A stretch of 64,000 bases of DNA from an uncultured Actinomycetes bacterium (GTDB taxonomy: Bacteria > Actinomycetota > Thermoleophilia > Gaiellales > Gaiellaceae). Every line of letters begins with the position of its first letter. The first letter of the stretch is position 1. The stretch is from assembly GCA_963733845.1 (NCBI GenBank), contig CAVTEM010000007.1, forward strand, positions 420,763 through 484,762, read 5' to 3'. Below the pieces are notes generated by a model that ran no database searches, was not told the origin of the DNA, and saw only the letters and a program-made list of their open reading frames with translations. A program made the translations under genes and the position numbers. Shown piece after piece: positions 1 through 40,850 of the stretch.

Positions 1-818
1 TCGACCGAGACGAAGAACCGCTCGAGATCGTTCGAGACCGTCTTCGCGCCGTGGTAGACGGTCGGCGTGCGGTTGTGGTTGCAGTGGTAGCCGGCGAGCT
101 CGGCCTTCGAGGCTCTCGATCGAGCCGCGGCGGAGGAGCATCCGCCGGCTCAGGTTCGAGTCGACGTGCCAGCCGAGCAGCATCTCCTCGTCGAAGCCGT
201 CGATCGCGACGAAGTCGTCGCGCAGGACGAGCTGGAAGTCGCCGGGCGCGTCGAAGCGGATCCACTCGTGGCTCAGCGTCGGCTCGTCCAGGCGCAGGCC
301 CGGGCCGAGCCGCTCGATCTCGGCCAGCGCCGCGTCGCGGATCGCTCCTCGGAAGCCGCTCCCACAGCCACTCCGGAAGCTCGAACCGCGGCAGGCCGTA
401 GAACCCGTCGGGGAGGTCGCCGCAGATCTCGCTCAGGCTCCGGTCCGACGAGCGGCAGGAAGATCATGTCGGTGTTCGTCGAGAGCAGCCAGCGGTTCGA
501 CGGGTTCGCGCGGCGCACGGCGGCGTTCCGGGCCACGGGCTCGAGCGCGGGCAGGTGCGTGCGCGCGGCGAAGCGCTCCTCGTGGATCGCGGCCGGCACG
601 CGGAGGACGCGAAGCAGGTCGAGGCAGCGCTCGGTGAGCGTGTCCGCGAGCGCCTCGACGAACGTCGGCAGCTCGTCGGGCGTGTTGTAGTCGACGAAGA
701 CGATCTCGTCGTCGGGGTCGGTGAGGACCTCGGCGAGGCAGTTCAGGCTCAGCGCCGCGCGCCGGTGGAGGTTGTAGCCGTGCGCGTCGTTCCGGCCGTA
801 GAGGAGGACCGAGATCAC
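1..818 (-). CDS. Putative glycosyltransferase-like protein; 3' end outside window; frame-disrupted as given
   Basis: ORF 273..818 has a GTG start and a GTGA overlap with the upstream stop at 815. It reads MISVLLYGRNDAHGYNLHRRAALSLNCLAEVL..FVDYNTPDE..STNTDMIFLP. Below about 440 the protein-like reading hops to the other minus frames: SEICGDLPDGFYGLPRFELPEWLWERL, then AALAEIERLGPGLRLDEPTLSHEWIRFDAPGDFQLVLRDDFVAIDGFDEEMLLGWHVDSNL, then ELAGYHCNHNRTPTVYHGAKTVSNDLERFFVSV. That is at least 3 frame switches. Only GT-A-like acidic motifs are visible; the family is not firmly recognised. Confidence 0.5.
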
Positions 819-1877
819 GGGCGCTGCGCGCGCCGCGCCGGCCGAGCATCAGCGTCGAGGCGACGGCCGGCGAGCGAGGCGCGCGCGGCTGCCGCCAGCT
901 CGTCGTAGATCCAGGCGTACGTCTTCTCCAGCCCGACGGCGAGCGGCGTGCTCGGCTCCCAGCCGAGGCGCTCGCGGATGAGCGTGTTGTCCGAGTTCCG
1001 CCCGCGAACGCCCTTCGGCGCGTCGAGGTTGTAGCGGCGCTTCAGCCGCACGCCGGCGATCTCCTCGACGATGTCGACGAGCTGGTTGATCGTCACCAGC
1101 TCGGACGAGCCGAGGTTGATCGGCTCGCGGATGTCGCTCTCCATGATCCGCGTCGTTCCGTACAGGCAGTCGTCGATGTACATGAAGCTGCGCGTCTGCT
1201 CGCCGTCGCCCCAGATCTCGATCTCGTCGCGTGCCGGCGAGCTTCGCCTCGGCGACCTTGCGGCAGATCGCGGCCGGCGCCTTCTCGCGCCCGCCGTCGT
1301 ACGTCCCGTGCGGCCCGTAGACGTTGTGGTAGCGCGCGACCCGCGTCTCGATCCCGAAGTCGTCGTAGAAGTTGCGGCACATGCGCTCCGAGAAGAGCTT
1401 CTCCCAGCCGTAGCCGTCCTCGGGCAGCGCCGGGTAGGCGTCCTCCTCGCGCAGCGCGGTGACGTCGGCGTCGCGCTGGAGGTCGACGTTGTAGATGCAG
1501 GCCGACGAGGAGAAGAAGTGCCGCTGGACGCCCTGCGTCCTTGCCGGCCATCAGCAGGTGCGTGTTGATCAGCACGGAGATCATGCAGGCGGCCCGGTTC
1601 GCCTCGATGAACCCCATCCCGCCCATGTCGCAGGCGAGGTTGTAGACGTGCGCGACGCCGCGGACCGCGTCCTGGCAGGCGTCGAGCGAGCGGAGGTCGG
1701 CGACGCGGTTGTCGACGCCGCGGGAGCACCTGGTACCACTCGTCGAGCGGCTTGATGTCGATCGCGCGCAGCTCCGTGTAGCCGTTCTCCTGCAGGTAGC
1801 GCACGAGCCAGCCGCCGATGAAGCCGCCGGCGCCGGCGACGAGGATCGGATCGGTGCGCGAGATCGCTTGCCTCCAT
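815..1877 (-). CDS. GDP-mannose 3,5-epimerase-like NAD-dependent epimerase (frame-disrupted as given)
   Basis: Pieces from three minus frames assemble into one SDR. They are ILVAGAGGFIGGWLVRYLQENGYTELRAIDIKPLDEWYQ, MGGMGFIEANRAACMISVLINTHLLMA (ORF 1093..1626), MCRNFYDDFGIETRVARYHNVYGPHGTYDGGREKAPAAICRKVAEAKL (ORF 849..1382) and EIEIWGDGEQTRSFMYIDDCLYGTTRIMESDIREPINLGSSELV..APKGVRGRNSDNTLIRERLGWEP (ORF 815..1804). The GDGxQTRSF and GVRGRNSDN blocks match my memory of GDP-mannose 3,5-epimerase. GGAGGA lies 6 nt upstream of the ATG at 1877. At least 4 frame switches. Confidence 0.75.
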
Positions 1878-1879
1878 GG

Positions 1880-38213: not shown

Positions 38214-39887
38214 AGACCGAAGAAGACCCGTCGGCCGTCCGTGCTGACGATCGGCTCTCCGGCGCCCGCCGCGCGCGCCTGCGTCTCCAGGGCGGCGCCG
38301 TTGTCCGCGAAGCCGAAGCGGTCGACCATCACGCCTGCGTACCCGGCAGCGCGCGCCTCGGCGACCGTGTCGACGTCGTCGCCGATGTCCTCGTCGCGAC
38401 CCTTCATCGCGCCGTAGCTCCAGCGCAGGTCGTCCGAGTGCAGGTAGGGGCGGACGTGGTCGTAGTCGACCATGCGCTGGATCGGCGGCGAGGAGGGGAA
38501 CGCGAGGTAGGGGAGCTCGAGCACCGCGGCGCCCTCGGGCAGCGCCGCGTCGACGCGCTCGACCCAGTCCTCGTCGCTGCTCCACTCGGCGGCGACCTGG
38601 TCGTAGGACGGCGTCATCGCGCCGGTGGTCTGGTCGAGCGCGCCGACCAGGAGCAGCGGGCCGCGGCGACCGCCCAGGCCGCACCGTCCGCGAACCGGCC
38701 GAGCGGAGCGCGACCGCGAGCAGCGCGAGGAACGCGATGAAGACCGAGAAGCGGTTCCAGGCGTGCAGCTGCGGGCTGATCAGGAAGCTGACGGCTGGCG
38801 CCAGCCCTCCCGTCATCGCGAAGAAGAGCGCGATCAGGGCCAGGACGGCCGCGTACCGCAGCAGCGGGTCGCCGCGTGGAGCGCCGGCCCGCCGAACGGC
38901 CTTCGCGAGCAGGATCGTCGCGAGCAGCACGACCAGCCCGACGTCCCGACGATGCCGAGGGCCGCGAAGGACGCCTCGGTGACGCCGACCTGGCGCTCGT
39001 AGCGCTCCTTGACGTCGGCGAGGCGCCGATGCGGTGGTCGCGACGGGCAGCACGAGCTGGAGCGGCGCGGAGGCTGAAGACCTCGGTCTCGAAGGCGAAG
39101 CGCTCGACCGCCGGGTTCGAGCCCTCCCGCAGGCGATCGACGATCGCCGGCGCGAAGTTCACGACCAGCGCGACCACGATCGCCGCCCCGAGGGCGCCGG
39201 CCGTCACGAGCGGACGGGTCGTCCGGCTCGTCGACCGCGGCCAGAGATCGCGGCGGCCGCCAGCAGGATCAGCGTGAAGGCGGCGTAGTACACGGCCGCC
39301 GAGCCGACGATCACGCACGCAGCGAGGATCGCGAGCGCCCGCCGGCTGCGAAGGGGCGTGACGAGCGGCGTGTCCGCGAGCACCGAGAGCGCGAGGAAGC
39401 AGCCGAGCGGCACCGCCCAGTACGCGGCCAGGAAGAGGTGGTCCTCGCCGCGCAGGAAGTGGTAGGGGAGCAGCGAGTAGAGCACCGAGGCGGCGAAGGC
39501 GCCCGGGCTGCGCCGACGCCCAGCCGGCGCAGGACGAGGAACGCCGTCAGCGCCGCCAGCGGGAAGGTCAGCAGGTAGAAGAGGTTGAAGGCGACGATCG
39601 GGTCGCGCACGACCACGCCGAGCGCACGCACGAGCGCCAGCTGGACGTTGTCGCCGGCGAAGACCGGGAAGTCGTAGAGCTCCTGCCCGCGCGGCGCGCC
39701 GAGCTCGTCGTTCTCCCAGAGCTGCGCCGTCCTCGACCGCGTGCTTGACGACGGCGGCGGTGAAGGCGGCGTCGCCGGAGTAGTCGAAGGGCACGCGCAG
39801 GTCGGCGTTCCAGACCTCGAGCACGAGGCACGCCACTACGAGCGCGAGCGCCGCTGCGGCGAGCGTCCCGACGAGCGCGCGGCCCAC
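38210..39887 (-). CDS. Large polytopic membrane protein with C-terminal soluble domain, family not recognised (heavily frame-disrupted)
   Basis: The GTG at 39887 opens (M)GRALVGTLAAAALALVVACLVLEVWNADLRVPFDYSGDAAFTAAVVKHAVEDG. The next piece is MRALGVVVRDPIVAFNLFYLLTFPLAALTAFLVLRRLGV (ORF 39311..39631). SVLYSLLPYHFLRGEDHLFLAAYWAVPLGCFLALSVL..ILAACVIVGSAAVYYAAFTLILLAAAA is in ORF 39204..39887. VTAGALGAAIVVALVVNFAPAIVDRLREGSNPAVERFAFETEVFSLR is in ORF 38614..39318. LLRYAAVLALIALFFAMTGGLAPAVSFLISPQLHAWNRFSVFIAFLALLAVAL follows. The soluble tail is ORF 38210..38617. Confidence 0.6.
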
Positions 39888-39889
39888 CC

Positions 39890-40850
39890 CTACAGCTCGG
39901 CGCGTGCGGCGAGTCGCTTGACGTCGGCCTCGACCATGAGCTGTACCAGTTCGTCGAAGCCGACCTCGGGCCTCCAGCCCAGCCGCTCGCGCGCCTTCCT
40001 CGCGTCGCCGAGGAGCGCCTTCGGGGTCGGTGGCGCCGCGCGTGAGCGACTCGTCGTAGCGGACGTGCTCCTGCCAGTCGAGGCCGACGACGCCGGAAGG
40101 CGGCCTCGACGAGGTCGCGGACGGAGCGGGCCTCGCCCGTGGCGACGACGTAGTCGTCCGCGCCCTCGGCGCGCACCATCAGCTGCATCGCGCGGGTGTA
40201 GTCGCCGGCGAAGCCCCAGTCGCGGCGGGCGTCGAGGTTCCCGAGCGTGACGTGGTCCTCGAGCCCGAGGCTGATCGCCGCGGCGGCGCGGGTGATCTTG
40301 CGGGTGACGAAGTGCGGCGGGCGGCGCGGCGACTCATGGTTGAACAGGATCCCGGCGGACGCGTGCAGCCCGTAGCGGGCTCGAAACGCCTGCACCGCGT
40401 GGAGCCCGAAGGCCTTGGCCGCACCGTAGGGGCTCAGCGGCGCCGGCCGCGTCGTCTCGCTCTGCGGCGGCTCGTCGGCGGCGGCGAAGATCTCGCTCGA
40501 CGAGGCGAAGAAGGCGCGCGTCTGCGGGACTCGCACGCAGCGCGTCGAGCAGCGCGACGACCGCGCCTGTCTCGGCGCGCGTCAGTCCGACCGGGTCTTC
40601 CCACCAGGCGGGCACGAACGAGACCGCGGCGAGGTGGTAGAGCTCGTCGGGAGCGAGCTCGGTAGAGCCTGCGCCGGGATCGAGGAGGTCGAGGTCGACG
40701 AAGCGAATCCGGTCGCGGATCTCCCTCGAGCAGCGGGTAGTCGTCAGGAGAGCCGAGGACGGTGCCGAGCACCTCGTGCCCGTCCGCCAGCAGTTGCTCG
40801 GCGAGATAGGAGCCGTCCTGCCCGCCGACACCCGTGATCAGCGCCCTCAC
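39890..40850 (-). CDS. gmd: GDP-mannose 4,6-dehydratase, copy 2 (frame-disrupted as given)
   Basis: The GTG at 40850 opens [31 protein letters not shown]. The next piece is IRFVDLDLLDPG..LYHLAAVSFVPAWWEDPVGLTRAETGAVVALLDALR (ORF 40334..40831). [120 protein letters not shown] is in ORF 39568..40536. The tail LLGDARKAREQLGWRPEVGFDELVQLMVEADVKRLAARAEL ends at the TAG at 39890-39892. Confidence 0.8.

Follow-up and report, generated by a model that had tools for sequence, protein, structure and literature searches.

Why should conserved bacterial genes be readable only by hopping from one frame to another, and why only in patches? This question is raised by a 64,000-nt stretch of DNA (hereafter the window) from a soil actinobacterium that is uncultured and falls in the Gaiellales/Thermoleophilia neighbourhood; the stretch holds an ordinary, large and probably functional glycan/exopolysaccharide biosynthesis cluster. 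A first-pass annotation of the letters had described many frame disruptions in its first 41 kb and offered two explanations, consensus error and very recent inactivation. The indel spectrum, an intact close relative (contig L017) and the sister genomes favour the first of these: we put a probability of about 0.9 on the frame breaks being consensus errors in the deposited assembly and not mutations in the organism, whose genes are probably not damaged.

Frame breaks located against intact orthologues

Because the G+C content of the window is ∼70%, long open frames also occur in its non-coding frames, and lists of open reading frames (ORFs) alone are uninformative. The frame path was followed with a codon-usage Viterbi model trained on intact ORFs of the window, together with a plot of third-position GC. 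Breaks were found with our own protein-to-DNA aligner, which permits one extra or one missing base and was fed the proteins of relatives, and their positions were then refined by DNA alignments. According to the Viterbi path the coding frame hops on the same strand ∼2.3 times per kb in 1–41 kb, and 41–64 kb consists of long single-frame blocks. Inside called or intact genes of three independent contigs the same model gave 0–0.13 switches per kb, hence the hopping is not due to the method or to high GC.

Several references cover the window. The JGI contig L014 carries 17 consecutive intact genes that correspond to 846–23,900 at ∼80% nucleotide identity. Two contigs from JGI sample 3300086401 cover 31,349–39,858 (L017, 92.8% identity overall and ∼98% over 34.0–37.6 kb) and 52,247–59,677 (L020, 93.6%), and the sister metagenome-assembled genomes (MAGs) L001–L003 cover 14.4–33.7, 37.6–39.3 and 39.9–44.6 kb at ∼65–83% nucleotide identity. 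For the asparagine synthase gene there are five further metagenome contigs (L022, L023, L024, L026 and L033) of 73–85% protein identity, the first three with ∼78–81% nucleotide identity, and for the first gene two entries of a protein collection (P0268 and P0270). Every affected gene is one uninterrupted frame in metagenome contigs of independent origin (L014, L017, L020, L022–L033). Moreover, the pieces in the window are colinear with these intact orthologues at 74–95% identity in the frameshift-aware alignment, and Pfam models span the junctions of the stitched proteins in single stretches. The pieces thus belong to single orthologues, and the description of conserved proteins readable only by frame hopping was borne out by codon model and alignment alike.

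The curated list holds 97 frame-breaking events, 95 of them in 1–41.1 kb (2.3/kb) and 2 in 41.1–64 kb (0.09/kb), at 56735 and ∼60972. With the break at 41062 these correct the impression that the right half is fully clean. Frame changes at ∼16081 and ∼29231 are ordinary gene boundaries and were dropped from the list, and an indel at 54983, which falls a little upstream of a start codon and breaks no gene, was not counted. The first-pass annotation had placed at least three switches in 1–818 and at least four in 815–1877, and we found 3 events in 3–818 and 4 in 856–1867. It had seen several each in 1880–3228 (9 events in 1908–3228), 8114–10040 (10 in 8114–10037), 18573–20556 (6 in 18573–20488), 26410–28450 (7 in 26422–28403), 29238–30168 (3 in 29239–30147) and 38210–40850 (14 in 38212–40847). 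The strong clustering that it noted is also real, with a dispersion index of 2.7 in 1-kb bins (p = 4e-12) and p = 3e-16 between left and right halves. Between the patches lie event-free stretches of 2.3–15.7 kb (11572–13921, 14333–17898, 22624–26830, 41062–56735, 56735–60972 and 60972–64000), in keeping with the multi-kb intact stretches reported before.

The asparagine synthase gene illustrates how such events are placed, for the same 10 breaks were called from each of six references (L014, L022, L023, L024, L026 and L033), every one of which has a single open frame, yet this 1.9-kb gene retains 85% identity to its orthologues. The two sites that had been pinned by eye were both recovered. 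An extra base expected near 14331 in the FkbM-like gene lies at 14333/14334, and that expected near 36825 in the cupredoxin gene is an extra C at 36824, where the window reads CTACACGGTG[C]ATCTGCACCG and L017 reads CTACACGGTG-ATCTGCACCG, with 10 identical bases on either side. The 122-aa public protein P0248 matches this cupredoxin identically across the first 103 residues.

Spectrum and context of the events

Single-base events are strongly biased, with 73 extra against 17 missing bases (p = 2e-9); further events are five two-base extras, one two-base loss and one five-base loss, the last being the largest frame-breaking deletion. Between orthologues, in-frame indels should dominate the divergence of coding sequence. 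In the comparison with L017, 8.5 kb contained 22 frame-breaking indels and 1 in-frame indel. Against L020, with an overall divergence as for L017, 7.4 kb contained 1 in-gene frame-breaking and 2 in-frame indels. Among 52 well-placed extra bases 39 (75%) are singletons outside any run, 11 stand in two-base and 2 in three-base runs, and just one has a run of at least four within 5 nt, which agrees with the earlier remark that the contexts are not homopolymers. The extra bases are 77% G+C, compared with 70% for the window.

In their placement the extra bases take no account of sequence or of coding. A link to GATC or another methylation motif was considered and rejected, as GATC occurs within 4 nt at 8 of the 52 sites, compared with a 10% background (p = 0.16). 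The top 4-mer at the sites, CGCG (19 observed, 9.6 expected), fails multiple-testing correction, and no motif at the 52 extra-base sites survives it. Separately, four of the five two-base extras (32800, 37726, 38656 and 39504) are CG or GC, with a chance of ∼0.004 by composition in this small sample.

Could the breaks be functional, the genes being restored or switched by programmed recoding, through frameshifting on the ribosome or slippage in transcription, or by phase variation at simple repeats? Intact conserved motifs flank each break, as such a mechanism would need, and nothing else speaks for it. The sites have neither slippery heptamers nor homopolymer tracts, their density is ∼2.3 per kb and reaches 10 in a single gene, they shift the frame in both directions, and no orthologue shares any break position, which leaves this explanation a negligible probability.

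The spectrum bears also on collapsed strain variation, in which the polisher would have written both alleles in series at polymorphic sites and so created a spurious extra base; the patches would then mark the most polymorphic segments of the population. The extra base should in that case differ from its neighbour, and extra bases are indeed singletons more often than the background (75% versus 62%). Several sites can be read as two third-position alleles, for example ACG/ACC at 26830, and the region is a strain-variable island. However, writing both alleles predicts a depletion of insertions between codon positions 1 and 2, and the slots are even over the codon, with 22 insertions between positions 2 and 3, 19 between 3 and 1 and 17 between 1 and 2 (p = 0.31). 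Neither the 17 missing bases nor the five two-base extras are explained by it, and we consider it very improbable.

Absence of decay in the broken genes

Genes that had lost their function should also have collected stops and amino acid changes. A random substitution has a 2.7% chance of making a stop in the reconstructed frames. Bacterial mutation spectra give 3–10 substitutions per indel. At that ratio 8–26 in-frame stops are expected, and a single one is present (P ≤ 0.003). When L002 serves as outgroup, the window branch has 69 changes at codon positions 1 and 2 and the branch of the intact L017 has 89, and identity to L014 is 84–88% for broken genes and 78–80% for intact neighbours. Relaxed selection in the broken patch had been a candidate, since codon positions 1 and 2 differed more often there when the raw comparison of the window with L017 was set against that with L020. 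It was dismissed when a per-gene breakdown and the outgroup test traced this excess to gene content and mosaic divergence and not to the lineage of the window. With insertions at ∼4:1, one stop and no relaxed selection, old pseudogenes are excluded, and the view that the indels are recent holds.

A near-identical contig of independent origin is informative. L017, ∼98% identical over 34.0–37.6 kb, has all its genes intact and lacks all four window indels of that segment, and the flanks of 34782 and 36824 are identical between the two. Divergence from L017 is a mosaic over 31349–39858: third positions differ by 3–4% in ∼34.0–37.6 kb, a module of GMC oxidoreductase, subunit 3, cupredoxin and HTH-cupin genes, and by 17–38% in the flanking glycan genes. 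Within 8.5 kb it ranges from ∼98% identity down to 63% identity at third codon positions. The mosaic suggests that parts of a strain-variable glycan island have recombined or been replaced.

A real and very recent inactivation would say that a burst of small indels has just killed the glycan cluster, and that stops and substitutions are yet to accumulate. The indels are truly present in the deposited sequence, their clustering falls in a functionally coherent region, one in-frame stop exists, and glycan islands vary between strains, as the mosaic with L017 illustrates. Nevertheless a gene is dead after its first break, yet here single genes carry 4–10 independent indels without other decay. 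The 4:1 insertion bias is opposite to the deletion bias of bacteria; Mira, Ochman and Moran reportedly described such a bias in bacterial mutation and pseudogenes in 2001. Moreover, the deficit of stops and the lack of a window-branch excess at codon positions 1 and 2 both speak against it, unrelated modules of the region (GMC oxidoreductase, cupredoxin and a methyltransferase) are broken as well, and three sister genomes have the same pattern at other sites. We regard recent inactivation as quite improbable. Its most specific form, in which a localised, insertion-biased burst of single-base changes silenced a ∼40-kb strain-variable glycan island very quickly in one strain, is extremely improbable; if true, it would imply targeted or regional hypermutation with an unusual +1 spectrum.

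Public record and sister genomes

The window is part of a public contig of 1,268,714 nt at NCBI and ENA, the source of P0001, which is identical to one protein of the window. Four wrong-tailed or truncated products in the public protein collection (P0227, P0242, P0246 and P0251) derive from this contig as well. P0227 is a glycosyltransferase of 412 aa that ends in a wrong-frame tail, its relatives having 382 aa (region 20571..22775), P0242 a 237-aa fragment of a 343-aa glycosyltransferase (gene 7058..8081) and P0246 a cupredoxin that a wrong-frame tail brings to 165 aa from the 122 aa of relatives. Because the collection contains proteins that could arise from the frameshifted sequence alone, the breaks belong to the deposited assembly. 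Automated annotation is therefore damaged in the way that had been predicted. The giant ORF 31000..33924 is a chimera caused by the breaks in 30156..33682. For the second giant ORF, 54992..58042, the attribution to fused frames stands in part: the frameshift at 56735 contributes, and the scarcity of stops in DNA of 72–75% GC contributes equally.

The nearest genomes are MAGs of the Microflora Danica catalogue (L001–L003, L005, L009, L012 and L013), labelled uncultured Actinomycetes, Gaiellaceae or Solirubrobacterales. This catalogue is Nanopore-only (R10.4.1), assembled with Flye --meta --nano-hq and polished by one Medaka round (PMC12313526), and Nanopore bins below ∼40-fold coverage are reported to need short-read polishing (PMC9262707). 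L005, L002, L003 and L001 carry frameshifts of their own at other positions, pooled 20 insertion-type versus 7 deletion-type, with no difference from the 73:17 of the window (Fisher p = 0.43). L005 compared with L003 (92–98% protein identity) has 13 insertion-type and 6 deletion-type events and one in-frame stop. It is patchy too, the first 5 kb being clean and events densest past ∼9.4 kb (9400–17200). In L002 the tested genes hold 6 insertion-type events, and its segment 1700–8900 shows many codon-model hops, three insertion-type events being confirmed there. Since L005 and L002 have frameshift patches of their own, the problem appears general for these genomes and not specific to the window.

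Probable origin of the breaks and points against it

The source contig is most likely a long-read-only metagenome assembly. Few or poorly matching reads in some stretches would leave stray single bases in the consensus, mostly insertions at random positions, each shifting the frame of an otherwise intact gene. A candidate cause of the patchiness is a local shortage of well-aligned reads, perhaps arising from the strain-variable glycan island, and we would link the patches to read depth or strain variation in this sense.

Several points weigh against consensus errors. We infer them from sequence comparison and not from reads. The platform and pipeline of the contig are inferred likewise, and its origin in Microflora Danica or another Nanopore assembly is no more than possible. 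The classical consensus error of long reads sits in homopolymers, where the events of the window are not concentrated, and is more often a deletion than an insertion. Because the present events avoid homopolymers and are insertion-biased, the match to the platform comes from the sister genomes only; in the literature we found no usable insertion/deletion profile for low-coverage R10.4.1 Flye/Medaka assemblies. The missing homopolymer link and the insertion bias depart from the textbook profile, yet this does not point to biology. About 40 events depend on a single reference of ∼80% identity. Two pairs of one extra and one missing base, 20909/20927 and 13921/13947, lie 18–26 nt apart and restore the frame. 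Compensating pairs this close are improbable under independent random errors, and the pair 20909/20927 is supported against three references. A base misplaced locally in the consensus or a real compensated change is possible for them. Finally, contrary to the earlier statement that the pieces hold no in-frame stops, a TAG at 19180–19182 interrupts the gene for a 642-aa membrane protein where L014 has Lys; it is the sole substitution-type defect in ∼37 kb of reconstructed coding sequence, and it looks real.

Genes of the cluster and further observations

The cluster contains several family-2 and family-4 glycosyltransferases, many S-adenosylmethionine (SAM)-dependent methyltransferases, two GDP-mannose dehydratase paralogues, a UDP-glucose dehydrogenase, several epimerases, an asparagine synthase, a split transketolase, a flippase, an O-antigen ligase and sugar transferases, and embedded in it is a module that comprises a GMC oxidoreductase, its subunit 3-like partner, a cupredoxin and a regulator. 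The genes and their breaks are collected in Table 1.

Table 1. Genes of the window with the single-base events placed in them (two-base and larger events are marked) and the references used; aa, amino acids; nt, nucleotide
Gene	Position	Strand	Events	References and remarks
Conserved hypothetical protein, cut by window start	3..818	-	extra ∼443, 331, 105	P0268 86% and P0270 81% identical over 270 aa; stitched protein covers 97% of single orthologues
NAD-dependent epimerase/dehydratase	856..1867	-	extra 1720, 1535, 1231, 880	L014 intact, 338 aa, 85% identical
UDP-glucose/GDP-mannose dehydrogenase	1908..3228	-	extra 3118, 2904, 2843, 2829, 2661, 2136, 2027; missing 2082; five bases missing 2015	L014 intact, 442 aa, 84% identical
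SAM-dependent methyltransferase	3238..4078	-	extra 3694, 3435, 3389, 3256	L014 279 aa, 88% identical; Pfam Methyltransf_25 positions 1-97 cross a junction
Membrane protein	5196..7014	-	extra 5714	L014 618 aa, 85% identical
Family-2 glycosyltransferase	7058..8081	+	extra 7390	L014 346 aa
Asparagine synthase	8114..10037	+	extra 8200, 8455, 8621, 8644, 8781, 8833, 8854; missing 8332, 9754, 9763	
Two methyltransferases	10057..11840	+	extra 10474; missing 11572	L014 331 and 262 aa
Methyltransferase and epimerase, intact	11840..13682	+	no frameshift versus L014	P0001 and P0267 in public collection are identical products
Small conserved protein	13726..14139	+	extra 13921; missing 13947 (compensating)	L014 144 aa
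FkbM-type methyltransferase	14184..14946	-	extra 14333/14334	
Family-2 glycosyltransferase, membrane C-terminus	17355..18560	+	extra 17898, 18119, 18243, 18388, 18439	L002 piece 95% identical (protein); L014 concordant
Membrane protein	18573..20488	+	extra 18716, 19883, 20217; missing 19199, 20123; two missing 20255	L014 642 aa, 78% identical; L001, L002 concordant
Two family-4 glycosyltransferases	20571..22775	+	extra 20909, 21602, 21820, 21980, 22624; missing 20927, 22096	L001, L002, L003, L014 concordant
Glycosyltransferase, flippase, methyltransferase, intact	22785..26413		4.2-kb event-free stretch	L001, L002, L003, L014 alignments
GDP-mannose 4,6-dehydratase	26422..27404	-	extra 27050, 26830	four relatives concordant; L003 intact, 314 aa
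Membrane protein	27482..28403	-	extra 28201, 28009, 27975, 27599; two extra 27812	L002 the only reference, moderate support
Split transketolase, N-/C-terminal subunits	28421..30147	+	extra 28938, 29284, 29751, 29931; missing 28457	placed by L002 pieces; subunit boundary at ∼29231 normal
Glycosyltransferase, conserved protein, sulfotransferase-like, epimerase	30156..33682	+	extra 31828, 32470, 32966, 33038, 33419; missing 30301; two extra 32800	L002 and L017 concordant
GMC oxidoreductase (gluconate 2-dehydrogenase alpha-like)	34029..35727	-	extra 34782	L017 intact, 565 aa, ∼98% nt; stitched protein covers 100% of 565-569-aa orthologues
Gluconate 2-dehydrogenase subunit 3-like	35728..36400	-	extra 35742; missing 35891	L017 226 aa; Pfam positions 3-135 of 135 cross the junction
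Cupredoxin, 122 aa	36515..36885	+	extra C 36824	conceals ligand block ICTVPGHVALGM
Methyltransferase and DUF6311 membrane protein	37653..39890	-	extra 39726, 39245, 39234, 39066, 38041; two extra 39504, 38656, 37726; missing 39043, 39023, 38944, 38705	L017, L002 concordant
Second GDP-mannose dehydratase paralogue	39893..40847	-	extra 40724, 40534, 40095, 40019	L003 alignment 56% identity; Pfam GDP_Man_Dehyd 1-332 of 332 unbroken over four junctions
Bacterial sugar transferase	40978..42352	-	extra 41062	L003; Pfam Bac_transf positions 1-178 of 179 cross the junction
O-antigen ligase	56013..57323	-	extra A 56735	L020 intact, 438 aa, region 93.6% identical
Family-2 glycosyltransferase	60570..61462	-	insertion-type frame change ∼60972 (codon model)	Pfam Glyco_tranf_2_3 positions 1-226 of 230 cross the junction

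Some features of the right half stand outside this list. Two PQQ-repeat beta-propeller proteins at ∼50497 and ∼51979 have their N-terminal signal or anchor peptide in another frame than the propeller, and these are two further candidate insertion-type frameshifts. At 45557–46100 the coding signal is weak, with four deletion-type hops in the codon model; neither L003 nor L005 has the segment, and no orthologue of it was found. At 43657–45336 an N-terminal HAD-hydrolase-like domain and a UDP-glucuronate decarboxylase-like epimerase share one open frame of 559 aa, and the first of the two is missing from the L003 orthologue (304 aa); a genuine fusion and a stop lost between two genes are both conceivable. 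Compared with L020, a 93-nt intergenic insertion (53761–53853) separates a sugar transferase from a glycosyltransferase.

Consequences and comparison with known systems

As it stands, ∼40 kb of a public contig gives predicted proteins that are cut short, chimeric or wrongly tailed. It would be wrong to deduce gene loss, pseudogenisation or new protein families from this region, or from similar patches of its sisters. Annotation that tolerates frameshifts, or polishing with short reads, would bring back an ordinary glycan biosynthesis cluster.

Pseudogene-rich reductive genomes, for example that of Mycobacterium leprae, contain stops and larger deletions, are biased towards deletion and have a raised non-synonymous divergence. 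They share with the window many frameshifted yet recognisable genes; these signs of decay are not seen in the window. Long-read indel errors as measured by IDEEL-type tests (PMC9262707; Kastor, PMC12007338) resemble the present events: small indels split intact genes, annotation becomes truncated or wrong-tailed, and comparison with orthologues reveals it. Such gene-fragmenting errors are reported to be worse at low coverage and in metagenome bins. The events of the window differ from the classical errors in that they lie outside homopolymers, are insertions at ∼4:1 and are strongly patchy within one contig, at a scale of one to several kb. The Microflora Danica paper treats Nanopore errors through low coding density, low-GC genomes and long homopolymers, and not for high-GC genomes (PMC12313526). 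Because the errors are insertion-biased and homopolymer-independent in a genome of 70% GC, checks on homopolymers or coding density may miss them. Microflora Danica MAGs themselves (L005 and L002) carry patchy, insertion-biased frameshifts like those of the window.

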